The translations under genes were made by a program, and so were the position numbers. From positions 25,162 to 89,161 of IMG/VR virus record IMGVR_UViG_3300042295_000443: DNA of 64,000 nt. One strand, written 5' to 3'. The number at the start of each line of letters is the position of its first letter. Position 1 is the first letter of the stretch. The notes below the pieces were generated by a model. The model was given only the letters and a program-made list of their open reading frames with translations. It searched no databases and was not told the origin of the DNA. Positions 38,215-64,000 of this stretch are shown here, piece by piece. The DNA comes from a virus.

Positions 38215-38937
38215 ATGGCTATAGTACTTCCAACAAAAAAGATCAAGGCTGATAGAGTTAATCCTAAAAGATTAATTATTTATTCAAAACCTAAAACTGG
38301 TAAAACTTCAGCATTTGCAGGACTAGAAAATAATCTTATTTTAGATTTAGAAAATGGTGCTGATTATGTAGATGCTTTAAAAGTAAAAATTAGTTCTTTA
38401 CAAGAATTATTAGATGCAGGTAAAGCTATCAAAGAAGCAGGTAAACCTTATACTTATGTTACTATAGATACAGTAACTGCATTAGAAGATATGGTTATGC
38501 CTTTGGCTATTAAGCTATACAAACAAACATCTATGGGTAAAAACTATGATGGAGATAATGTATTGTCTTTACCAAATGGTGCTGGATATTTATATTTAAG
38601 GCAAGCTTTCTTTCAAGTTTTAGATTTTATTGATACTTTAGCACCCCATATTATTTTATCAGGTCATATTAAGGACAAACAGGTAGATGATAAGGGTGAA
38701 ATGGTAATGGCTGCTAATATAGATTTAACAGGCAAAATAAAGTCTTTGATTTGTGCAAATGCTGATGCAATAGGTTATATGTTTAGAAAAGGTAATCAAA
38801 CTATTCTAAGTTTTAAGACTATTGGAGAAGTGACTTGTGGAGCAAGACCTGAACACTTAAGAAATGAAGAGATAGTAATTTCTGAAATGAATGATAAAGG
38901 TGAATTAATAATTCATTGGGATAAAGTATATAAATAA
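38215..38937 (+). CDS. AAA_24/Sak4-like ATPase
   Basis: YSKPKTGKT, LDLENG, VTIDTVT. Confidence 0.8.
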   Translation: MAIVLPTKKIKADRVNPKRLIIYSKPKTGKTSAFAGLENNLILDLENGADYVDALKVKISSLQELLDAGKAIKEAGKPYTYVTIDTVTALEDMVMPLAIKLYKQTSMGKNYDGDNVLSLPNGAGYLYLRQAFFQVLDFIDTLAPHIILSGHIKDKQVDDKGEMVMAANIDLTGKIKSLICANADAIGYMFRKGNQTILSFKTIGEVTCGARPEHLRNEEIVISEMNDKGELIIHWDKVYK

Positions 38938-51285: not shown

Positions 51286-51324
51286 AAGGGAGATTAGCAG
51301 AAATGCTTTTCTCCCTTTTTTTTT
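51286..51324 (+). terminator. Terminator at convergence of replication and virion modules
   Basis: AAGGGAGA..AGCA-GAAA-TGCT..TCTCCCTT plus T-run. Confidence 0.8.
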
Positions 51325-54300
51325 ACATCAACGCCTCAGAAATTTCTTTCTTCTTAATTGCCCAATAAGGTGCAGCATTCTTACCAGATAAACCAATTAA
51401 GGCACCAAGATGATTATATATTTTATAATTACCTTCTTCTTGCCAAGAATATGGACCAACATCTTGTTTATAAAGTGCTTTATCACTTCCTGTTGCCATA
51501 TAACCTAGATCTATTAAAATTTTACCATATACTCCTAATGTTGGACTTACTACAATAGTACTTGTTTCAGAAAACTTTGTCCATTCATTTAATCCTACAA
51601 AAGGTAATGGTATAAAAGTTTGATTTTCTCTTTTAACCATCATTAATTGATACAGTAAATGATTAGCCATCCATCCTGCTCTGCCATATTTTTCTTCCCT
51701 TTCTTTTATTTTTTTAAATCTATCTTCATCACCTACACTATATCCAAAAATATAAGTTATTATTACACCTAATAAGACTAATAACATACCTTCTGTAAAT
51801 ACTTTTTTCATAACAGATTTTTCTTCAGCTGTCATTAAAGGAGCATATGTATTATATTTTGTAATTAATTTCCAAGAAGATTGAAGAAATTGTATATAAC
51901 TACCTCTCTTACTTTCATCTAAATCCCAATCCCATGTATCTCCACCAAAGTTTTCTTTAGATGTATCCATTTGAAATCTTTCTAAAAACATACCTGTAGC
52001 ATATTTTCTAGAAAAACTAAATAAGTTATAAAGTAAATATTTTTCAGCAGCAGGTGAATCAAGATCATTTGTAGTACCATTTAATCTTTTATTAGAGGCT
52101 GCCATTACTCTTTTTATTTTATTTAATTCAGTACTTCTTGCAATTACTAAGCTATCTCCTATTTCAATATTTTCAAGACTAGTTATTTTATTTTTTAACT
52201 TAAGTTCTTCTACAGTTATATTATACTGTTTAGCAATTGAATCTAGGGTATCTCCTTTAACTAAAGTATGATCTACAGGAGCAGTTCCCCATTCAGGATT
52301 TATTCCATCTTTTAATTTTATTGAACCATCTTTAGCAGTTTCAAAAGCATTTGCATATCTTATCTGTAAAACAGAACCATCAGGTTGTATTTGATCAACC
52401 ATTTGTTTTTCAAGAATACTAAAACCTATTTCAAAAGCACCTTGTTTTTCTAATAGTCTTCTATCTGAATACATCCAACTACCTTCTATTAAATCTTTAA
52501 CTCCTGTTCTTGTAGTTGATTTACCAAAGTCTTTTTCTGCTTTACCTGGATCCATACCAAATAATTCAACCATCTGCATATTTAAACTTTTCATTCCTCT
52601 TGCATAAGCTCCTTGACCAGCATATTCAAATATAGCTTTAGTAGCTGTAATTTGACCTCTTGCCATAGATGGAAAATCAATATACTTTCCTCCAGCTGCA
52701 AAGACTAGTTTCTGATAATTCATTCCCCATTTATTCTTAACAGATGATACAGGATTTAAAGCATAAAAAGCTCTACTTGCTTGAGCCATTAAGCCTCTTG
52801 CAACTTTTGTAATCTTAACATTATCAGATTGAAATTCAGCAGTAACTTGACCATAGAAAGTTCTGTCCATAAAATCATTAAATAACTGTAGTCTTTTATT
52901 AGTAGATCTTTTTAAGAACACGGCAGATTTATCATTAATTTTTGATAATGTTTTACTTGCTCTATCTAACTTATCTAATGCGTTATCAGGATCTGCATAA
53001 ACAGATTGTATAGCTTTTGCTATTGATTCATTTTCTATTAATGTATTTTGTTTATCTAAAGAATACATATAGTTCCATTGAGATCTAAGAACATCTGTAG
53101 AAACTGCATTAATATCAAGTTTAAACAAACCTCTTACAGGAACTCTAGTAATTGGATTTCCTTGTAGATCAGTAGGTACAAATAATAGATCATTATCAAA
53201 ATTAAATCTATTTTCTGGATCATCAGAAGCAGCTTTTACTGAATCTTTTATATTTATAGCAATACTACTTGATTTTTCTTTTATGTCCTCTTTTAATTTA
53301 CCTTTTTGAAGATATTCTAAATTATCTTTTATTCTAAATCTTGCAAAATCTAAATACATTTTAGATGGATATTGTTTACCCTCTTGCATCTTTAAATAAT
53401 TTTCTTTTAGTTTTTCTAAAAGTAAAAACTGAGCATTATTTTTTTGTTTAAGTTCATAATACTCTTTATTCATGTACTTATCATTAGCATGACCTATTGC
53501 ATATTCAATAGGCAACATATTATTTCTATTATCTACATGAACTCCAACCTTTAATTCAACTTTTTTAGTTTTAGGATTGTATCCTGTAAAAAATTCATCT
53601 TTAATTTTTGTTACTGAATACTTAGCTATTGGAACTCCTTCAAAAGGTATTTGTTCTTTTGTTATAGGGTCTAATAATATTGTATGCTTATAATAACCTT
53701 CATCTGCAGGCTTACTAATATTCCAAGCTTTTAATCTAAAATATTTTAAAATAGATTCTCCTGTTTCTACATCATATCCTGTTCTTGTATAATGATTTTT
53801 ATCAAACCATTCAGCAAATTCAGGACTAGCTGCTCTTGCAGCTGCAACATCAGCAGATTTAAGCCAATTATCTGCCGTGTCTACAGTAAGTGGGGAAAGA
53901 TCTAAATTACCTAAAGCATTATTAAATGCTGTAACATAGTGATCTGTACATTCTACATTAGTTAACTCAGCTAATTTTTTATATTCTTTTCTTAACTGAG
54001 TTGTTTCTATAGAAGTTAAACCAAATATAGTTTTTTCAGAAGCTAATTTTTTATACTCAGCTTGTTCTTCTGCACTCATTTCAGACATTAAACCAAGACC
54101 AATAAGATCTTCATAATATCTAAACTTAGCAGCATCATCTTTGGATAATCCAGATTTTCTATCAAAGCTTTCTTGTGCTTCAACTATTTCTTCTTCAATA
54201 GCTTTAAGTCTATTAATTTGATCAGGAGCTAATCTTAAACCATTAGGTTCTCCATCCTTATCAGTTACCCTATTTACTAAATTATATCTTTGTTCATATA

Positions 54301-57199
54301 AATTAGCAAGTTGTTTTGATACTGCAGTGTCTTTACTTTTTTCATTAAGTTTTTTAATCCGTTCAAGAGTATTACTTCTTTCTTGATAATATGCATCACT
54401 ATAAGCAACTTTAAAGTTCTTATCTCTAAACTTTATAATTTCTGCTTGATATCTAGCAGGATCTGATTCTTTTGTAACACCAATTGCACCAAGTGTAACA
54501 GTAACAAAGTGATCAAAATCTCTTTGTACTTTATCTAAATTAGGTGTTGTTTCACTAAATTTTCTTGATTGCTCTCTATATGCTCTTCTTATTAAAACTT
54601 TTTCTAGTTCTATACCTTGTTTATATTGACCATTAAGATTAAACATGTTATATAATTCATCATATTTAATCTTAGCAGCTTTAGATGGAGTGAATTCATT
54701 AAGGTCATCTAATTCTGTAAATACAGAATTATTAAATGTACTCATATCTTCAAGAGCAGCTCTTCTTTCCATATAGGCATCTAAAGAAACTTGTGCAGAA
54801 ACAACTATATCTTTTTTTGTTGCTGGATTAAAAACTACATTGTCTTGTCTCCACATTTTCTTTACTGCATATACAGCATCAACATGTTGTTTTTGCATAT
54901 ACTTTTCTTCCCATTCCCATCTAGCATTTAAAGCAGCTTTTATTTCATCTTTGTCACCTTTTTCTTTTGCTTTTATAATATTATCTTCTAGTTTAGCTTT
55001 ATCAAATCTCCAAGTTTTAAACTTATCAAGATATGCATAAATTTCTGTTTCAATAAGATTTCCATCTTTATCTCTATCAGGAACTATATCTTTAAATAAA
55101 ACAATATCTGCTATAGCACTAGTATCATTATGACTAATTCCTGTAGCAGCAAGATAAGGTTGTAATTCTTCTGCCATTTTATATTGAGCCTGAAGACTTT
55201 TCATTTCTTGCTCTGATAATTTGTCTTTCATAAAATTTACAAAAGAACCTAACATGTCATTTACATTTCCCATAGGAGTAAGCATACCCGCCATTCCTAC
55301 ATCTTTTACATGTCCTCTTAAATAATTATCAACACTTTCTTCTGTAATTTTATTAGCATTATAATTAAAAATTTCTTTTAATAATAAAGGTGCACTTTTT
55401 AAAGGTCTTGGTAATAAAAAATCTTTAGTTGCAATTGATCTGATATTTTGTACATCAAGCTTATAAAATAAATCATCTTTAAAAGCTTGTATTTCTTCTT
55501 CTGTAAATTTTTCTACAGATAATGCTTTGTCAATATAGTTTTCAAACTTTTCCTTTACATTTTTTTGCATTGGTAAACTGTTTTCTATAAAGAAACCTTT
55601 AACAAAATCAAATGTCATGTCTTTTGCTTCATCAATATTATCTTGTACTGTAGCTTTAAGTGATAATATTTTTTTTACTATTTGATCTGAAGGATTTAAA
55701 CCTAATGCTTTTCTAACATTTTCTAGAAATTTAAGCTCTCTTTCCATGAATTGCTTAAAGTATTGTATTTTAGCATTACCATCATGAGTCATAAATTTAT
55801 TAGTATCTTTCATTTCTGCCATAATACTTTGAACTCTATTTGCAAAAACTTCTAATTCAGTTAAACTATTAATAAATGATAAAGATCTTTTTCTTAAATC
55901 ATCTTGTTCAATTTCTAAAGTTCTAAATAATTCTTCAAGTTCTTCTTCTGTAATATCTTCTCCTACTGTTTTGTATGCTTTAACATAATCTCTTATGTTT
56001 CTTAAAACATCCATTCCTTCTTTTCCTTTTAGATCTTCTTTAAGTTTCTGTGGAGAATTTCTAAGAACTCCAAGTTGAAAAGCCATTTCAGTATGGAATT
56101 GATTGATTACATCTATAAGTTTTTGAGGAGTAGCTTTTTTTAATTCATTTAAATAATCTTCTGTGTCTTTTTTAAATTCTGCAAATAAAGATAACTGTAG
56201 ATTTAAATCTTCAATAAAGAAATCTTTATTTAACATCATGTCTACTAACTCTTCTCTTGTAGTTGATGTAGATAGATTTTTTAAATTTACTTTTCCAACT
56301 AAAGCTTTTAATACTTGTTTAATAGCAAATAATAAATTTTGTATAAACTTAGCAAAGGCACTATCATTATTAATAATTCCTGCAAGTTCTCTATCAGCAT
56401 CAAACTGCATAGCAGTAACAATAGCTTCTTCTTTAAATCTTGGTGTGTCTTCTTTTAATTCAGGATATTTATTTCTTACATGCTTTATAGCTTCTAATCC
56501 TGTTGCAGATTGAGTTAACTGATTAAATAAATTATTAAATAATTTAGGATTTTGAATAGCAATTCCTTTAACTAAAGGGTGTGCAAACTCATGTATAACA
56601 GAACTTGCACTAAACTTTCCTTTTATAAAATATACTTTATTATTATAATAAAAAGCAGATACATCATTAGTATATGGAGTTGGACTTTCAGAAAGTAAAA
56701 TAGCAGCATCTGCAGGAGTTATTATATCATAACCAATTCCAAAAGCTTTAGCATATTTTTCACCTAATTTTTCAGCAATTTCTAAATCTCTATGTTCTAA
56801 AACTTTATCTGTAAAATAATTTTCTATAGTTCTTTGATTAGATCTTTCATCTGATTCTTTTTTAAAGACTTCATCTTCTAAAACATTATCAATTAGTCCT
56901 GCTCTAATAGAATCTTGGCGTTGAAGTTCTTCTGCTTGTCTTTCTATTTCTTTTAACTCAGCTATTTCTTTTTCAAGTTCACTAGCATAATAAGTATCTA
57001 TTAAAGACTGTGGTATAGTTATATTTCTTTCTAATTCATCTTCTGTATATTTTGTAAAAGAAATAACTTTTGCACCATATATAGCATTTATTTCAGCAGC
57101 TAATTTATTAGCATTAGCCAAATTCATTAAAAGACCTGGTTGGCCTTTATCATAAACTTGTTGAGTTAAATTTGCTTTTATTTGAATTGGACAAGGCAT
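51323..57199 (-). CDS. Giant virion (ejected) protein with zincin motif and LysM domain
   Basis: HEFAH at ~56579-56593; LysM HTLVKGDTLDSIAKQYNITVEELKLKN at ~52142-52273; hydrophobic segment near C-terminus. Confidence 0.75.
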   Translation of the reverse strand: MPCPIQIKANLTQQVYDKGQPGLLMNLANANKLAAEINAIYGAKVISFTKYTEDELERNITIPQSLIDTYYASELEKEIAELKEIERQAEELQRQDSIRAGLIDNVLEDEVFKKESDERSNQRTIENYFTDKVLEHRDLEIAEKLGEKYAKAFGIGYDIITPADAAILLSESPTPYTNDVSAFYYNNKVYFIKGKFSASSVIHEFAHPLVKGIAIQNPKLFNNLFNQLTQSATGLEAIKHVRNKYPELKEDTPRFKEEAIVTAMQFDADRELAGIINNDSAFAKFIQNLLFAIKQVLKALVGKVNLKNLSTSTTREELVDMMLNKDFFIEDLNLQLSLFAEFKKDTEDYLNELKKATPQKLIDVINQFHTEMAFQLGVLRNSPQKLKEDLKGKEGMDVLRNIRDYVKAYKTVGEDITEEELEELFRTLEIEQDDLRKRSLSFINSLTELEVFANRVQSIMAEMKDTNKFMTHDGNAKIQYFKQFMERELKFLENVRKALGLNPSDQIVKKILSLKATVQDNIDEAKDMTFDFVKGFFIENSLPMQKNVKEKFENYIDKALSVEKFTEEEIQAFKDDLFYKLDVQNIRSIATKDFLLPRPLKSAPLLLKEIFNYNANKITEESVDNYLRGHVKDVGMAGMLTPMGNVNDMLGSFVNFMKDKLSEQEMKSLQAQYKMAEELQPYLAATGISHNDTSAIADIVLFKDIVPDRDKDGNLIETEIYAYLDKFKTWRFDKAKLEDNIIKAKEKGDKDEIKAALNARWEWEEKYMQKQHVDAVYAVKKMWRQDNVVFNPATKKDIVVSAQVSLDAYMERRAALEDMSTFNNSVFTELDDLNEFTPSKAAKIKYDELYNMFNLNGQYKQGIELEKVLIRRAYREQSRKFSETTPNLDKVQRDFDHFVTVTLGAIGVTKESDPARYQAEIIKFRDKNFKVAYSDAYYQERSNTLERIKKLNEKSKDTAVSKQLANLYEQRYNLVNRVTDKDGEPNGLRLAPDQINRLKAIEEEIVEAQESFDRKSGLSKDDAAKFRYYEDLIGLGLMSEMSAEEQAEYKKLASEKTIFGLTSIETTQLRKEYKKLAELTNVECTDHYVTAFNNALGNLDLSPLTVDTADNWLKSADVAAARAASPEFAEWFDKNHYTRTGYDVETGESILKYFRLKAWNISKPADEGYYKHTILLDPITKEQIPFEGVPIAKYSVTKIKDEFFTGYNPKTKKVELKVGVHVDNRNNMLPIEYAIGHANDKYMNKEYYELKQKNNAQFLLLEKLKENYLKMQEGKQYPSKMYLDFARFRIKDNLEYLQKGKLKEDIKEKSSSIAINIKDSVKAASDDPENRFNFDNDLLFVPTDLQGNPITRVPVRGLFKLDINAVSTDVLRSQWNYMYSLDKQNTLIENESIAKAIQSVYADPDNALDKLDRASKTLSKINDKSAVFLKRSTNKRLQLFNDFMDRTFYGQVTAEFQSDNVKITKVARGLMAQASRAFYALNPVSSVKNKWGMNYQKLVFAAGGKYIDFPSMARGQITATKAIFEYAGQGAYARGMKSLNMQMVELFGMDPGKAEKDFGKSTTRTGVKDLIEGSWMYSDRRLLEKQGAFEIGFSILEKQMVDQIQPDGSVLQIRYANAFETAKDGSIKLKDGINPEWGTAPVDHTLVKGDTLDSIAKQYNITVEELKLKNKITSLENIEIGDSLVIARSTELNKIKRVMAASNKRLNGTTNDLDSPAAEKYLLYNLFSFSRKYATGMFLERFQMDTSKENFGGDTWDWDLDESKRGSYIQFLQSSWKLITKYNTYAPLMTAEEKSVMKKVFTEGMLLVLLGVIITYIFGYSVGDEDRFKKIKEREEKYGRAGWMANHLLYQLMMVKRENQTFIPLPFVGLNEWTKFSETSTIVVSPTLGVYGKILIDLGYMATGSDKALYKQDVGPYSWQEEGNYKIYNHLGALIGLSGKNAAPYWAIKKKEISEALM

Positions 57200-57228: not shown

Positions 57229-60200
57229 TTACTGACAATCAAGTGATGTTCTTTCTATTCCTGGTAAACCTTCTGGAGAATTAAGATTATTTTCAGCTTC
57301 ATATTGTTCTCTATCACGCATTGCTTCAGATAAATCTTCAAAAGATGCTGACTCATTATAAGCTCTTATACTCTCTTGTTGTTCACTTTCTTCTTGAAGT
57401 ATATTACTTGCTATTGCAAATGCTTGATTATATGCTGAACTACCTTTATTTAAGCCAAGAGCATTTAATATAGCATCTATTATTTCTTCAAATAAGTTCT
57501 TATAATTTTTAACATCAGCAGGTGCTAATTCTTTAAGTTGAGTAATAAATTTAGCATCTGTAAACAAAGCTACAAAAAATTCATCAATTGTATAATTAGC
57601 ATAAGGTCCAGTTAAGTCTTTTGTATTAAATTTTCCTAGCTGATTAATGCTATGATCATATAATTTTTGAAAGTCTTTATTAAATTCATTATTTTTTCTT
57701 AGTGCTTTATAAGATAGAGCATGTAAAATTTCATGAAGTAATAAAGTCTCACTTTGACCATTTCTTACATTTGCAAATTCTGCAATAGAAATATTATTAT
57801 TATAATTATCATAAAACCCTCTACTTAAAAAGTTAGGATTATTATTAAAACCAACTTGTTCTTTTAATAAAACATCTACATCATTTATATTAGCAAATGA
57901 TTTTAAATGTTTAGCTAATGTATTTAGTGGATGATTTGATTCACCTATAGCATTTAATAATACTGATACCTTTACTATCTCTGAATCTTTAAAATACTTT
58001 TCTCTTATGTTTACATCAGGCTTATTACCAGATATAACATTTTCTTGAATACTAGATGGTAATTGAGTAACAACTTTAGCTGGTGTTTTAGGCATTCCAG
58101 GTTCTAAATTTTTAACTCTTCTTAAAGTAATAGATATTCTATAACTTCCTTTTTCATAATTTTTTCCATCTATTTCTGTAGTTATTGCAGGTAAAAATCC
58201 ATCTTGCTTTGATGGAAAAGTTCTATGCATTACTTTTCTATTTTGTCCATTTAAACCAAAAATATATGAATCTCCAGCATTAAGAGGAGTTGGTTCATAT
58301 TTACCAGTTTGTTGAACACTAAAATTACCACTACCACCTATATTAAGAACAAGAACAGGATAACCAATAGCATCAGCAGCTTCATCTACATCATTATGAG
58401 CACTTATAAAAGTTTCATCCTTATAAAGATTTATTATAGCTCCATCATAATCAGTAGCATCTATACCAGTAGCTTTAGACATTAATGTTTTAATTCTAGG
58501 ATTAATAGGACCTAATGGTTGACCATTAATAGATACTTCATAATAACCATACTTAGCACTACTTCCAGGTACAATAATATTTTTTATTTCAATAGCTTTA
58601 TAATTAGGATTATTTGATTTATAATCCCATCTTAAACCTAATCCAATCATTACATTTGCACTAGTAGCTTTATTAGTTGTAGCTCCTTGTTTTTCAATAT
58701 AAGGTTTAAGAATATTAAATAACTCAAGTTGTTCTTCTTTAGTTATAACATTTCTTTTAATTTCAACACCTGGAATTACCACTTCTGTTTCAACACTAGT
58801 AGATGGTTGAGTAATAGATTTACTAATCAATCCTGTTTTATTAGCATTTAGCTCTGTAACTAATCCATATCTACTTAACAATTCATTTTGTAACCATTCT
58901 GCAAATCTTGTTGGTATTTTAGCTAAATCAGAGGCAAATCCTTGAGGAAATATTTTAGTTTCATACTTATCTATTTTAGCAAATTGTTCTAAATTTACTT
59001 TTTTAAATAACTCAAAATCAGCTTCTGTATCTTGAAAATCTTGATTCCACCCCCCAGTTATTTTTGAAGTAGCTCTATCTTCTTCATATACATAATACTT
59101 TTTAGTTACTATACCTATTGCATTTGGATTATTTCTAATAACTGCACTTCCTCCACCAACTCTTGAAGAGCCTATAGAATTTATATTTTCAGTAAATATG
59201 TAAGCAGTGTTAGGATTTTCTTTTGGCGAATCTTTAGTCCAATTGTTTTTAACTATTGAAGATTTACTATTAACACTAGTAGATGGTTGAATAGGTTTAT
59301 TAACTAAATTTTTCTTTAATAAAGCTAACACAGATGAATCAAGATCTTCAACATTAACTACAGGTACTTCTGGTGTTTCAACAACTGGGGCTTTTTTAAA
59401 CTCTGTTGCTTTAGGAGCTACATAATTCTTAATTTTTTTATTAAGAGGATTTGTAAGTAAATTAAAAATTGTATTTAAAGTATTCACATCTAGTACCTTT
59501 TCCTCAAATATTACAGATGCTGTTTGCATAACATTGAGATAATCATCATAAGGTAATGCTTCATTAAATCCTAAAGCACTGTATCCTATACCATGTTGAT
59601 AGATCATCATTAGAGGTAGTTGAGCAAATAACTTACTAATCCTTGCATTATCTTCAGTATTTGAAGATTTCTTAATAGTGCTATCTGCTAGGTCAAGTAA
59701 ATTTTGATAATATATTTCTGCAAGTTGCCCGTCCTTAAGCATTTTAACATCATTTAATGTTAATACAAAATTTTGAACAATTTCAACTTTAGGAGCACCA
59801 AATGCTTCTTCTCCAGTTTTAGCAAAAACTTTTGTTATTGTTAAAGGTTTACTAAATTGAGAAATAATTGGATATTTATTTTTTAGTTGTGGAAACTCTT
59901 GTATGATATTCATAACCATATCTGTATATGAATTATTTTCAATACCACTTATAGCTTGTCCATTATATGCATTAAGAAGAGCTTGCTGATTTGTATATTC
60001 CTCATATGCTAATTTAGATACCTGATTTTCAGGAACTCCTTCATTACTTAAAATACTTTTTATTTTTAAATAATCTTTATTAGTTTTTAAAGAATCAATA
60101 GGGAATGCATTTCTCTGATATTCTCTTTCAAATACATATCTTACATAAGAAGATTCATTAGGGAACATATTGTCCTCAGTATCAAATCCTTTTAAACCTG

Positions 60201-63200
60201 TATTATTATAGGCACTTGTTGTTGTATTAGTATTTAAATAAACTTTATCAGCATAATCTTTTTTTAATTTTGCTTCATCAACAAATATAGTATCACCAAC
60301 TACTTGTGCACCTCTTATAACTTTATCTTTTTGTTTAACTTTTAAATTGTTAAACTCAGATGGCATATTTGTTAACTCACCATTCTCATCTATAAAGTGA
60401 GACATGTAGTTTTGAAATATGTAATTAGGAATTGCATTTTTAAATTGTGTAATAAATTGACTTACACCATCTTGTCCTTTTCCAAATCTATCAGTTATAA
60501 GATTAGGATGTGTTTCTATTTTTTGAAGAATATAATTAGTCACCCTATCATTATTTCTTAATTGAAATAAAGGAATTATTAGATCTTTAATTAATTGGTT
60601 ATCAAAAAAGCTACCTAATATAGAATCTTGCATAGCTTCAACTAAACCATCATCTAATTTTGAAAGTTCTTTAGCATCTTCTAGTGATACATTTCTTCTA
60701 ACTATTTCTTGAATAGTTTTAGAAGTTTTAGTATCTGGATTACTTAATGATTTAAGAGTACTAAATCCTTTAGAAGATTTTTCAAGTTCTAGAACATGTA
60801 AGAAAACTGCAAGAGCTTTAGGAGAAGTTGAATCACCAGTCATGACAATATCTTCTAATTCTTTTAAACTAAATTCTTTTATACCTTTAGTAGCTGCTTT
60901 TGCTGTATAATAAAAATTTGCATTAGATACAGCAAATTCACCAATTTGTATAAAGACTCCAGTAGCTGGTAGTTTTCCTTGTTTAGGATAATTTACAGAA
61001 TAAAGTTGTTTTATATCAATAGTACCTTTAGAAAGATCATTAAGTAGCTTTTGCTTTGTAGTTGGTACTTTTTCTAAATCAAATACTTCTATAGCCTTAC
61101 CATTTCTATCAGTTCCTGGTTTAGTTCCTATAATAATATTTATCTCAATATCTTCTCCATAAGGAGTTTTTTTATTTAAAGCATCTTTAAGTTTTAAAAG
61201 ATTAGCTTCAGGCATAATCTTCTCTAAATTTTGTTTAATACTAGATTGATATAGACTTGATTCAAAAATAGATTTATAATTTAGTACATTATTTGCTGCA
61301 GTATATTTTGCAAATGCAATATTATAATCTTTATCAATTAATCCAGTAACTGGAGCATAAGCACTTTTTATAAATCTTTGTTGTTCAGCATATGCTCTTA
61401 CTAATGGTTGTGATACCATCATTATAGCTTCCATTCTAGGAACACCTGCTTTAAATAAGAAAAGTAACATTGGAACAAGTTCTAAATTTCCTTGTATAAA
61501 AAATATCCAAGCATCTTTTTCAGCATCTAGGGCACCATTTAAACTTTGAGAAAATAATTCTGAAATTTCATCCATTCCATCTGCACTATAAATACTTGAT
61601 AAAGATATTTTACCATCTTTAGTTTTATTGTGTGGAACTAATAGTCTTACATCATAATCAATATCTCCTTCAATTAATTTTCCAGCTTTATTATAACTTG
61701 ATTCTTTATAAGTTAAAGGCATTGTTGCACCAACTGAATTAAATATTGGATTTAATGCATTCTCTAGAGCTATAATACCTAATACTTTTTTAGCAACCAT
61801 GTTTTCATCATGCTTGGCCATATTGTATTCTACTTCTAATGTATTTGTTGGACTAATGCCTTGACTAGTAGCTCCTGTAAATTGTTTCTTTAAATTATCA
61901 GCAATTTCTTTTAATAAATATGTATCATTAGGTCTTATTAGGCTTACAAAATTATCTTCTAGTTCTAGAATACCTCTTATTGTAGTAATTAAATTATTTT
62001 CAGAAGCAGCTTTTTGTGATTTAATTAAATTAAAGACATCTTTTTTTCCATCTTTTGTTTTATTTAATCTAGCTACTTCAGCTTCTAAAGCTTCAGTAGA
62101 TATTCCTCCTTTAACAAAATTGCCATCTTTATCAATATGTGGTAAAAATGTAGTTAATTTATCAATGTCAAAGTCAGCTCCTGATTTAGCAACTATTTCT
62201 GTTGGAAGAATTATAATACCTCCAGCAGAAGGATCTAAAAACTCATATACTTCCATGAATTCCATAGAGTTAACTCCTTGTACTGGTATTCTAACACCAG
62301 TAAGAGTTACTGCTTTTCTGTTATCATCTTTATTTAACCATTCTTCATCTTTAATAAGTTCATTAAGTCTTTGTCTTGTTCCTATAGGTTCTCCATTTGT
62401 ATCTTTTAATTTTAAAAGATTTAAAAAGTCTCCTTGTAAAGAAATAGCAACTTTCATTGCAGATGTATTACTAACTAATTTTACTTTTGGTTTTTTACCA
62501 GCAAGTACAGCTTCTAAATAATCAGTTTCAACTCTTAAGTTGTATCTATTTCTAGCAGTATAGTAGTTTGCTTGATCTACTAGTATACCTTTATTTATTT
62601 TAAGTAATTCAGCAAGTTTTTCTTTAGTGTAGTCTTTATATTTAACATCAAGATCTGTAGACTCTTCACTAAAGAAAGGTAAATTATTTGTACCAATGTA
62701 TTTTTTTTGGTCTGCTAAAGTAGCATTTCTGAATCTTGTTTGTGAATCCCAAATTCCATTAGTCATAGAACTTGCTACTTGAACAAAAGCTTCACCTTTT
62801 ATATTTTGTTTAATTAATCTTTTTTCTACAAGAGAAACAAGAATCTTTTCTATCTCATCTGCTTTTAAGTGTAATGATAAATCAGTCTTAAGTGACTTGT
62901 CTCTATTGAGACCAACCATTTGAATTAGATGTTCTGGTAACTCTCTTTTTTCAAGTTCATCTTGAACAACATTTAAAAACTGATTAATGTTACCTGTATA
63001 CTTTTTAGTTTTAGGATCATATGTATATCCTATTTCATTAAGTAATTCAAGTTTAAGTACAGCACTGTGATGATCTACAGCAAGTTCATATGCTCTAATA
63101 GCTTCTCCATTCTTCTCTTCATTAATTATTTTGCCATTCTCATACATACCGTTAAGAATTAACTTTCTTAACTGAGTAGGAAATATTGTTTTATTTTTAA

Positions 63201-64000
63201 ATTTAGTTGGGACAGCTGTAACATTTTTTAAATACTCTACATAAATAACATTAGGTGTAAATTTAATGTCTGCCTTTAAAGTTTTATTATCAGTATTTTT
63301 TTCATAGATTTCATCTGCTACTGCTTCACCTTTTTCATTTACTTCAGATGTAACACTACCTACTTTAGAACCAGATTGAAAAGTAACATACTGAATATTC
63401 TTATTCATCATTTGCTCATGCAAAGATTGAAGATCAGAATTTTGAATCATACTTGGTATAAGAGGCATAAGTGAAAACTTATGCATTGCATTTACAGGTA
63501 ATCCTGTACCAGATAAGTGACCAAAATTTTGTAATTTATATGCTGGAAAGAACTCTGTTATATCTGCAACAGATACTTCAGTACCATTTATTATTTTTTG
63601 AAATAAAACTTCTTGAGCATTAGACCAATTATTTTCATTTGTTTTTAATAACCTATAGCCATCTAGTGTGATCCATCCTTGACCATCACCTTCTTCCATA
63701 TCTATATACTTGGAAACTTCTTGGTCTACTCTAGTTTTTACAGCAGCAGCAACTTGACCTTTAGGTAAAACTTTATTAAATCTTTTAGTATAATCTTTTG
63801 TTAAAGCATTTTCTATTTCTTCAAGATATAAGGATGTTCTCTTTACTTCTTGTATAATAGCTGTATTAAGTTTTCCATCATAATTAATAGTAGGGAAACC
63901 ATTCTTTGTTGCAGCATAAGATGTATTTGCTAAATATCCATTACTAAAATTTTGAGCAGCAATATCTGTTCTTATTGATCTACCTCCAGATGTTAATCCT
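57229..64000 (-). CDS. Virion RNA polymerase polyprotein (5' end outside window) with macro-like, AlkB and zincin domains
   Basis: Frame stays open from 63699 to 64000; RIP..G motif, GADFDIDK at 62161-62175 (DFDID as in phi14:2 gp66); HND/H/RxxxxxR; HEILH. Confidence 0.88.
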   Translation of the reverse strand, partial: GLTSGGRSIRTDIAAQNFSNGYLANTSYAATKNGFPTINYDGKLNTAIIQEVKRTSLYLEEIENALTKDYTKRFNKVLPKGQVAAAVKTRVDQEVSKYIDMEEGDGQGWITLDGYRLLKTNENNWSNAQEVLFQKIINGTEVSVADITEFFPAYKLQNFGHLSGTGLPVNAMHKFSLMPLIPSMIQNSDLQSLHEQMMNKNIQYVTFQSGSKVGSVTSEVNEKGEAVADEIYEKNTDNKTLKADIKFTPNVIYVEYLKNVTAVPTKFKNKTIFPTQLRKLILNGMYENGKIINEEKNGEAIRAYELAVDHHSAVLKLELLNEIGYTYDPKTKKYTGNINQFLNVVQDELEKRELPEHLIQMVGLNRDKSLKTDLSLHLKADEIEKILVSLVEKRLIKQNIKGEAFVQVASSMTNGIWDSQTRFRNATLADQKKYIGTNNLPFFSEESTDLDVKYKDYTKEKLAELLKINKGILVDQANYYTARNRYNLRVETDYLEAVLAGKKPKVKLVSNTSAMKVAISLQGDFLNLLKLKDTNGEPIGTRQRLNELIKDEEWLNKDDNRKAVTLTGVRIPVQGVNSMEFMEVYEFLDPSAGGIIILPTEIVAKSGADFDIDKLTTFLPHIDKDGNFVKGGISTEALEAEVARLNKTKDGKKDVFNLIKSQKAASENNLITTIRGILELEDNFVSLIRPNDTYLLKEIADNLKKQFTGATSQGISPTNTLEVEYNMAKHDENMVAKKVLGIIALENALNPIFNSVGATMPLTYKESSYNKAGKLIEGDIDYDVRLLVPHNKTKDGKISLSSIYSADGMDEISELFSQSLNGALDAEKDAWIFFIQGNLELVPMLLFLFKAGVPRMEAIMMVSQPLVRAYAEQQRFIKSAYAPVTGLIDKDYNIAFAKYTAANNVLNYKSIFESSLYQSSIKQNLEKIMPEANLLKLKDALNKKTPYGEDIEINIIIGTKPGTDRNGKAIEVFDLEKVPTTKQKLLNDLSKGTIDIKQLYSVNYPKQGKLPATGVFIQIGEFAVSNANFYYTAKAATKGIKEFSLKELEDIVMTGDSTSPKALAVFLHVLELEKSSKGFSTLKSLSNPDTKTSKTIQEIVRRNVSLEDAKELSKLDDGLVEAMQDSILGSFFDNQLIKDLIIPLFQLRNNDRVTNYILQKIETHPNLITDRFGKGQDGVSQFITQFKNAIPNYIFQNYMSHFIDENGELTNMPSEFNNLKVKQKDKVIRGAQVVGDTIFVDEAKLKKDYADKVYLNTNTTTSAYNNTGLKGFDTEDNMFPNESSYVRYVFEREYQRNAFPIDSLKTNKDYLKIKSILSNEGVPENQVSKLAYEEYTNQQALLNAYNGQAISGIENNSYTDMVMNIIQEFPQLKNKYPIISQFSKPLTITKVFAKTGEEAFGAPKVEIVQNFVLTLNDVKMLKDGQLAEIYYQNLLDLADSTIKKSSNTEDNARISKLFAQLPLMMIYQHGIGYSALGFNEALPYDDYLNVMQTASVIFEEKVLDVNTLNTIFNLLTNPLNKKIKNYVAPKATEFKKAPVVETPEVPVVNVEDLDSSVLALLKKNLVNKPIQPSTSVNSKSSIVKNNWTKDSPKENPNTAYIFTENINSIGSSRVGGGSAVIRNNPNAIGIVTKKYYVYEEDRATSKITGGWNQDFQDTEADFELFKKVNLEQFAKIDKYETKIFPQGFASDLAKIPTRFAEWLQNELLSRYGLVTELNANKTGLISKSITQPSTSVETEVVIPGVEIKRNVITKEEQLELFNILKPYIEKQGATTNKATSANVMIGLGLRWDYKSNNPNYKAIEIKNIIVPGSSAKYGYYEVSINGQPLGPINPRIKTLMSKATGIDATDYDGAIINLYKDETFISAHNDVDEAADAIGYPVLVLNIGGSGNFSVQQTGKYEPTPLNAGDSYIFGLNGQNRKVMHRTFPSKQDGFLPAITTEIDGKNYEKGSYRISITLRRVKNLEPGMPKTPAKVVTQLPSSIQENVISGNKPDVNIREKYFKDSEIVKVSVLLNAIGESNHPLNTLAKHLKSFANINDVDVLLKEQVGFNNNPNFLSRGFYDNYNNNISIAEFANVRNGQSETLLLHEILHALSYKALRKNNEFNKDFQKLYDHSINQLGKFNTKDLTGPYANYTIDEFFVALFTDAKFITQLKELAPADVKNYKNLFEEIIDAILNALGLNKGSSAYNQAFAIASNILQEESEQQESIRAYNESASFEDLSEAMRDREQYEAENNLNSPEGLPGIERTSLDCQ
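58792..59290. repeat. Perfect 19-bp direct repeat AACACTAGTAGATGGTTGA (QPSTSV linker)
   Basis: Copies at 58792-58810 and 59272-59290; degenerate third copy ~58048-58068 (TQLPSSI). Confidence 0.85.

Follow-up and report, generated by a model that had tools for sequence, protein, structure and literature searches.

A short, DNA-fixed in-frame joint separates variable enzyme cassettes in the predicted polymerase polyprotein of a crAss-like lake phage

How could a phage polymerase gene gain, lose, and exchange whole enzyme domains while its reading frame stays open? The question is raised by a gene in a 64,000-nucleotide (nt) stretch of DNA (here called the window), which is the final 64 kb of the 89,161-bp IMG/VR record IMGVR_UViG_3300042295_000443. 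All coordinates are positions in the window. The record is linear, has a GC content of 30% and an estimated completeness of 75%, and belongs to a crAss-like phage of lake water. The gene is encoded on the minus strand and extends from 57229 past 63999, and its product carries a predicted RNA polymerase core followed by a tail of discrete domains (cassettes) that are set apart by a short repeated linker (the joint) reading QPSTSV. We consider it probable that the product is a polyvalent crAss-type polymerase protein whose cassettes are shuffled by short-homology recombination at this shared, in-frame linker.

A first-pass annotation of the window had described two discrete domains beyond the polymerase core, separated by IQPSTSVN, TQPSTSVE, and the degenerate TQLPSSIQ and followed by a HExxH domain. 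This layout was borne out: both intervening domains matched Pfam families above the cut-off, and HEILH was found at residues 2089 to 2093 of the 2,256 residues of the gene product that the window holds. In the order of translation, the core, joints, and cassettes are as follows.

59320..63999, minus strand: window-borne part of the crAss-type two-barrel RNA polymerase core, predicted from DFDID and a profile match to PDB 6VR4
59272..59290, minus strand: joint 1, IQPSTSVN, at the border of core and tail; exact 19-bp repeat
58813..59271, minus strand: cassette 1, DUF7831, 153 amino acids (PF25176, 4.2e-10)
58792..58810, minus strand: joint 2, TQPSTSVE; second copy of the 19-bp repeat
58069..58791, minus strand: cassette 2, predicted AlkB-like 2OG-Fe(II) (2-oxoglutarate and iron) dioxygenase (PF13532, 1.9e-12, plus motifs)
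58045..58068, minus strand: joint 3, TQLPSSIQ, decayed; L001 has TQPSTSE and L027 has TQPSTSV at the same place
57277..58044, minus strand: cassette 3, putative zincin-like metallopeptidase domain, with HEILH at 57721-57735 and a candidate third ligand, Glu, in IDEFF at 57574-57588

Within the window-borne product, IQPSTSVN spans residues 1570 to 1577, TQPSTSVE spans residues 1730 to 1737, and TQLPSSIQ spans residues 1978 to 1985, with the QPSTSV core at residues 1571 to 1576 and 1731 to 1736. The start coordinate of the annotated region, 58048, falls within the degenerate joint 3 (58045-58068). The first two linkers had also been reported as a perfect DNA repeat, and the 19-bp sequence AACACTAGTAGATGGTTGA is indeed identical at 58792-58810 and 59272-59290, with no further copy in the window even when up to three mismatches were allowed. 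Two copies of the repeat arose in 0 of 100 shuffles.

Next, we asked what is conserved in the joint. We gathered 80 related IMG/VR loci (L001 to L080) through the polymerase core alone and traced the joint itself as the 18-mer CAACCATCTACTAGTGTT. The 18-mer was present in 44 IMG/VR contigs, where every exact copy read QPSTSV in frame within a very long open reading frame (ORF) and none lay in an orphan module outside the giant ORFs. Across 80 distinct contexts (49 with the exact motif), the conserved core measured approximately 22 nt, (A)CT ACT CAA CCA TCT ACT AGT GTT, and the flanks carried essentially no information content. The codons CAA CCA TCT ACT AGT GTT were used in nearly every instance, whereas codon usage predicts this in about 0.7%. 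Among the nonexact contexts, 30 codon changes were nonsynonymous and 3 were synonymous, with CCA to TCA making up 16 of the 30. The joint was identical across phages whose polymerase cores are 26 to 60% identical. Since the synonymous sites are fixed and the changes are mostly nonsynonymous, the opposite of what selection on the peptide predicts, the conserved entity is the DNA rather than the peptide. A second allele, QSSTSV (CAA TCA TCT ACT AGT GTT), occupied 16 distinct contexts (L009, L015, L019, L032, L036, and others) and was itself fixed at the DNA level.

The joint also stood out against the background of the genomes. In a k-mer census of the core-selected loci (1.7 Mb), it was the most dispersed nonsimple 14-mer, and a loose peptide pattern matched 26 times in the 80 loci versus 0.5 times in shuffles. 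In 596 Gb of prokaryote genomes, the 18-mer matched only twice, and we set both matches aside as chance-like (one in a 158-amino-acid ORF of a Bacilli metagenome-assembled genome and the other in an archaeal surface-like protein). Chance, codon bias, or an assembly artifact has next to no probability as the source of the pattern. The AT-rich genome does narrow the choice of codons, but the paired copies that shuffling did not reproduce, the excess of peptide matches, and a codon identity expected in so few instances all speak for a real element, and the 44 IMG/VR assemblies that contain it are independent.

The codon changes bear equally on the idea that the linker is chiefly a protease site, cut at TQPSTSV so that the cassettes are released and recombination is incidental. 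The cutting would be done by the zincin-like cassette or the HExxH domain encoded in the next gene, within either the capsid or the host. The motif sits precisely between folded domains, and the zincin cassette keeps its HExxH and Glu. Zincins have been described as a hub of polyvalent proteins and proposed as their processor (Iyer, Burroughs, Anand, de Souza, Aravind 2017, PMC5512222), and it has likewise been suggested that fused crAss polyproteins are cleaved (Drobysheva et al., preprint 10.1101/2020.03.07.982082). However, selection on a cleaved peptide predicts free synonymous change, the reverse of the ratio found. The peptide itself also varies (QSSTSV, QPATSV, QPSTNV, and QPSTSE all occur), and relatives without the motif have borders that are merely generic and rich in Ser, Thr, and Pro. 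Judged by these changes, peptide recognition does not keep the joint constant, and a chiefly proteolytic linker is quite unlikely; cleavage by the zincin as a secondary role is possible.

If cassettes move at the joint, as the first-pass annotation supposed when it described a modular cargo gained or lost by recombination at the repeat, the domain content of relatives should vary, with breakpoints at QPSTSV. Comparison of the relatives supported both expectations: tail content differed between them, and the borders of highly similar blocks coincided with the motif. We distinguished 34 cassette families following the joint, and one and the same cassette was found behind many different upstream partners. 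Segments from joint to joint were mostly 120 to 160 amino acids long, which corresponds to single domains. The tail of L001 has a different 88-amino-acid unit followed by the AlkB cassette and lacks the zincin, that of L027 places an unknown domain after AlkB, and that of L028 has a unit like an ADP-ribosyltransferase (ART) followed by the zincin. Seven joints follow each other in L009, and L067 has four in its N-terminal region. A different linker peptide, QPQAS, was absent from the 80 loci. The cassettes of relatives with Pfam matches comprise AlkB-like oxygenase, DUF7831 (recurring in L113, L122, L117, and L095), NADAR, ART-PolyVal, AAA_33/zeta-toxin-like P-loop kinase, and cpYpsA SLOG; about half of the cassettes have no Pfam match.

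The AlkB cassette has been exchanged recently. Its nucleotide identity is 94.4% to L001 and 92.6% to L027, whereas the polymerase cores are 68 to 76% identical, and the block of high identity begins at residue 1729 (joint 2) and ends at residues 1983 to 1986 (joint 3). Over all loci, 119 of the 349 endpoints of isolated blocks with at least 85% identity (34%) were located within 10 nt of a joint, versus 0.7% for random positions. The zincin cassette, which stands behind the decayed joint, is 73.7% identical to its counterpart in L028 and thus about as diverged as the core, which fits the notion that intact joints mark recently moved cassettes.

We then turned to natural populations, since the first-pass annotation had proposed read mapping for repeat-mediated deletions. 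No fewer than 22 metagenome runs from lakes or freshwater, out of 24 listed, contained at least part of the window stretch, and contigs of four runs were compared with the window. One such deletion was found. In run X21, an 811-nt contig fuses position 58791 to position 59272 with 19 shared nucleotides at the fusion point. What it lacks is exactly 480 nt (160 codons), corresponding to the DUF7831 cassette, and in its flanks it matches the window except at 9 of 811 positions (approximately 99% identity). A 4.6-kb contig in run X12 has the full form. Logan contigs are assembled with a k of 31. Since the 19-bp repeat is shorter than this, the X21 joint must be spanned by reads, which also argues against an artifact of assembly. 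Holes in the X21 contig cover over 58879-59208 were not counted as evidence, and we relied on the bridging contig only. In contig record 11 of run X12 (2017, freshwater), both joints (58792-58814 and 59264-59303) flank approximately 448 nt of unrelated DNA, a different cassette that either occupies this slot or belongs to another phage.

The deletion and the block borders also help in judging whether the fixed codons are a signal in RNA or translation, such as a pause between domains for cotranslational folding or an RNA processing site. The motif is always on the sense strand, in one frame, and between domains, as such a signal would require. The uninformative flanks nevertheless make a conserved flanking structure impossible, the codons are common ones (AGT, at 27%, excepted), and a signal of this kind leaves both the block breaks at the motif and the deletion variant unexplained. 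We regard it as very improbable.

Under shuffling by short homology, the joint would serve as a homology patch of approximately 19 to 22 bp. A cassette would be deleted in frame when direct copies within one genome recombine or when replication slips between them, and recombination between coinfecting genomes would insert or replace one. The reading frame would always be kept, as the patch has a single reading phase. The DNA of the joint would stay constant since only cassettes with intact joints go on spreading, and a decayed joint, like the TQLPSSIQ that precedes the older zincin cassette, would freeze its cassette in place. We infer that this recombination is driven by homology rather than by a dedicated enzyme.

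Several points weigh against this account. The evidence for recombination at the joint comes from sequence comparison, and the maintenance of the joint by turnover alone is a model. Approximately 60 of the 80 loci lack the motif, yet tail content varies there too, showing that variation can arise without the motif. The CCA-to-TCA change (P to S, 16 contexts) may be a single spreading allele that inflates the nonsynonymous count, and the deletion variant is one contig, with a depth of 4.5, from one run. Finally, 19 to 22 bp is the lower limit of homology used efficiently by known recombination systems, and a dedicated enzyme is conceivable for this reason.

Such an enzyme could be a site-specific recombinase or a homing-type endonuclease that targets the 22-nt element, making the array an in-frame, integron-like platform. 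The conserved core is discrete, with sharp edges next to uninformative flanks; it holds across phages with cores only 26 to 30% identical; and it contains the palindrome ACTAGT. Against this, the deletion seen in X21 runs simply from one repeat to the other, as homology alone predicts, and the four families searched in the incomplete genome gave no candidate for such an enzyme, with a Sak4-like AAA_24 protein as the single find and integrases, HNH, and LAGLIDADG nucleases not searched. We hold a dedicated enzyme of this kind to be distinctly improbable. It is on the whole unlikely that the joint is a specialized recombination site of a freshwater crAss-like guild, in which circles or an enzyme would move a shared pool of effectors and selection would act on the joint DNA. 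For recombination by short homology, the Sak4-like AAA_24 protein (PF13479, 2.7e-27), encoded at 38263-38817 on the plus strand, is a speculative candidate for a single-strand annealing recombinase that could anneal short homologies. The RecT, ERF, and RecA families were not found in the approximately 75%-complete genome.

The polymerase itself is of the crAss-type two-barrel kind, since it contains DFDID and its profile matches phi14:2 gp66 (PDB 6VR4) across this catalytic motif. DFDID begins at residue 609 of the window-borne part (62161-62175); the core-region profile matched 6VR4 with an E value of 2.1e-18, with SGADFDIDK aligned to gp66. A single-sequence phmmer search of the core against PDB found no match, and 6VR4 was reached by the profile only. 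In comparison with the close relatives that align there (8 of 8), the core has approximately 61 additional residues at about 62470-62670 (residues 443 to 509). PHROGs had no family for the polymerase tail or core, megablast against GenBank phages gave no match, and tblastn gave only distant matches to gut crAss-like phages.

The gene runs off both the window and the contig, and part of its N-terminal third is lost because the record is a linear fragment that is about 75% complete. In relatives, the ORF measures 3,000 to 4,900 amino acids from stop to stop, with approximately 1,770 residues preceding the point that matches the first residue in the window. We rejected a circular joining of the two ends of the record, as it did not restore the reading frame. 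At the contig start beyond the window (L127:2-3169, minus strand), a 1,056-amino-acid open frame runs off the contig edge and probably encodes the N-terminal portion of this polyprotein. This frame starts with a SET-domain match (PF00856, 8.3e-5), possibly a protein methyltransferase as further cargo.

Among the cassettes, DUF7831 scored 39.9 bits against a Pfam gathering cut-off of 27. Its structural model (predicted local distance difference test [pLDDT] score of 81) returned no Foldseek row at an E value of ≤0.001. In the VIA-wide comparison, Z peaked at 3.8, and scattered rows at Z 3.1 to 3.5 pointed to macrodomains, a likeness too weak to be used. The closest relative of this cassette, P0003, is 92% identical, stands behind a TKPSTSV joint, and has upstream sequence unlike that of the window. 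Cassette 2 is predicted to be an AlkB-like dioxygenase: it scored 48.3 bits against a cut-off of 31.2 for 2OG-FeII_Oxy_2, covering profile positions 2 to 194 of 194. The iron triad is represented by HxD in AHNDVD (residue 1867, 58384-58401) and the second His in VMHRT (residue 1923, 58219-58233), and the 2-oxoglutarate motif RxxxxxR is represented in YRISITLRR (residue 1953, 58117-58143). A single-sequence phmmer search of this cassette against PDB gave no relative.

The unit bearing HEILH comprises 271 amino acids and has 245 relatives, nearly all within giant proteins. H104, E105, H108, and E155 are invariant in 18 sequences, and no Pfam family matched. The top Foldseek rows for its model (pLDDT of 81) were the protease domain of anthrax lethal factor (probability of 0.94 to 0.96; E value of 0.02 to 0.05), in line with a zincin-like metallopeptidase as a putative assignment. 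A structural link to lethal factor has also been reported for the metallopeptidases of polyvalent proteins (PMC5512222).

Homology to phi14:2 gp66, which according to the preprint is packaged in the virion, together with the published concept of polyvalent proteins, leads us to infer that the protein is packaged and injected with the DNA, so that the cassettes would act before phage gene expression. The injected cassettes may then serve repair and counterdefense, with AlkB acting in the repair or demethylation of nucleic acids and NADAR and ART in ADP-ribose conflicts; as putative roles, repair and counterdefense are probably the functions of these enzymes.

Two further features lie at and beyond the end of the gene.

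57232..57276, minus strand: C-terminal cap PEGLPGIERTSLDCQ, with a near-terminal Cys; shared by relatives
51323..57199, minus strand: downstream giant gene, 1,958 amino acids, start MPCP; HEFAH near residue 205 and LysM at residues 1644 to 1686

The cap, with the pattern PEGLPGIxRTSxDCQ, ends the proteins of L027, L028, L059, and others, regardless of the cassette that precedes it, and its nucleotide identity is 83 to 85% in L027 and L059. The cap may anchor the cassette array on the right-hand side or act as a signal for packaging. A Cys lies within the last 8 residues in 53 of 56 distinct polyprotein C termini from L001 to L080, although only 0.05% of all residues in these proteins are Cys. 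Downstream, after 0 to 36 nt, the next giant gene nearly always starts with M-x-C or M-x-x-C. Here, the end of the polyprotein (57232-57255) finishes in DCQ before the stop codon, and the next gene, whose start lies at 57191-57199, begins with MPCP. A Cys pair thus straddles the border of two virion proteins that are otherwise Cys free, and it could be a disulfide, metal, or thioester link. By its position, the downstream gene is presumed to be the counterpart of phi14:2 gp65. The zincin cassette showed no demonstrable kinship with its HEFAH region beyond the motif (BLASTP E value of 1.2; hhalign probability of 1.8%).

Taken as a pool, the at least 34 small domain families, most of them unannotated, that are shared and probably delivered with the phage DNA form a catalogue of candidate activities for early counterdefense and repair, among them AlkB, NADAR, ADP-ribosyltransferase, and kinase. 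For engineering, the joints offer naturally occurring, frame-safe sites at which to insert cargo into a virion protein, and the presence/absence variant in lake metagenomes makes cassette turnover measurable in nature.

The nearest known systems are the polyvalent proteins of phages and conjugative elements, in which one polypeptide combines 2 to 15 domains of disparate activity (PMC5512222). That study described giant phage proteins that unite a virion RNA polymerase with zincin-like metallopeptidases, ART, and kinases, proposed that they enter with the DNA, and noted their mosaic, fast-evolving architectures. By its architecture, the protein in the window belongs to this class: it likewise unites a polymerase core with DUF7831, AlkB-like, and zincin-like domains. 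The cassettes of relatives, which include the ART-PolyVal family itself, match the repertoire published for polyvalent proteins. The published cases have N4-type (T7-like) polymerases, whereas the polymerase here is of the two-barrel crAss type, and the text of PMC5512222 mentions no linker, AlkB, or crAss and describes no conserved or DNA-fixed junction. For the gp65-gp66-gp67 block of phi14:2, Drobysheva et al. (10.1101/2020.03.07.982082) noted a polyprotein fusion in some phages, a zincin in gp65, and possible cleavage; the text of that preprint mentions neither C-terminal cassettes nor a linker. Like our protein, gp66 is a two-barrel polymerase with DFDID, next to a giant gene with a zincin motif. 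It differs in that the 2194-residue chain of 6VR4 ends approximately 830 residues past DFDID in the profile alignment, which leaves no room for such a tail. Our literature search found no published description of the QPSTSV joint and nothing relevant on DUF7831, a crAss AlkB, or a cleavage site in crAss polyproteins.

More distant systems share single aspects. In polymorphic toxins, VENN of CdiA and PxxxxDPxGL of Rhs mark where a constant part meets exchangeable C-terminal domains; there, as here, the coding sequence of a short in-frame motif gives the homology for module swaps. Those proteins carry a single terminal toxin with an immunity gene and orphan modules, whereas the joints here form serial arrays (up to seven), immunity genes are lacking, the exact copies include no orphan modules, and the gene downstream is a conserved giant virion protein, which sets the system apart from polymorphic toxins. 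Polymorphic-toxin motifs are not known to have synonymous sites that are fixed across families. Plant RNA viruses have AlkB domains within their replicase polyproteins, presumably for early repair or demethylation of viral nucleic acid. They resemble our case in placing an AlkB-type dioxygenase within a viral polymerase polyprotein and differ from it as eukaryotic RNA viruses without a cassette system or virion delivery.

In the tail-fiber genes of T-even phages, His boxes and glycine-rich motifs are crossover points around interchangeable segments, and a "linker" model of modular phage evolution is reportedly owed to Botstein. The fiber motifs delimit host-range segments of one structural protein, whereas the joint described here delimits whole, unrelated enzyme domains, and in contrast to both precedents, one element of approximately 22 nt is common to phages with 26 to 60% core identity. 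As the linker lies within the reading frame, whole enzyme domains can be exchanged without breaking the protein. What is new relative to these known systems is a polyvalent protein with a DNA-fixed, frame-keeping recombination joint, a clear sequence-level case of the long-proposed and rarely seen phage modules that use a conserved linker as their crossover point.

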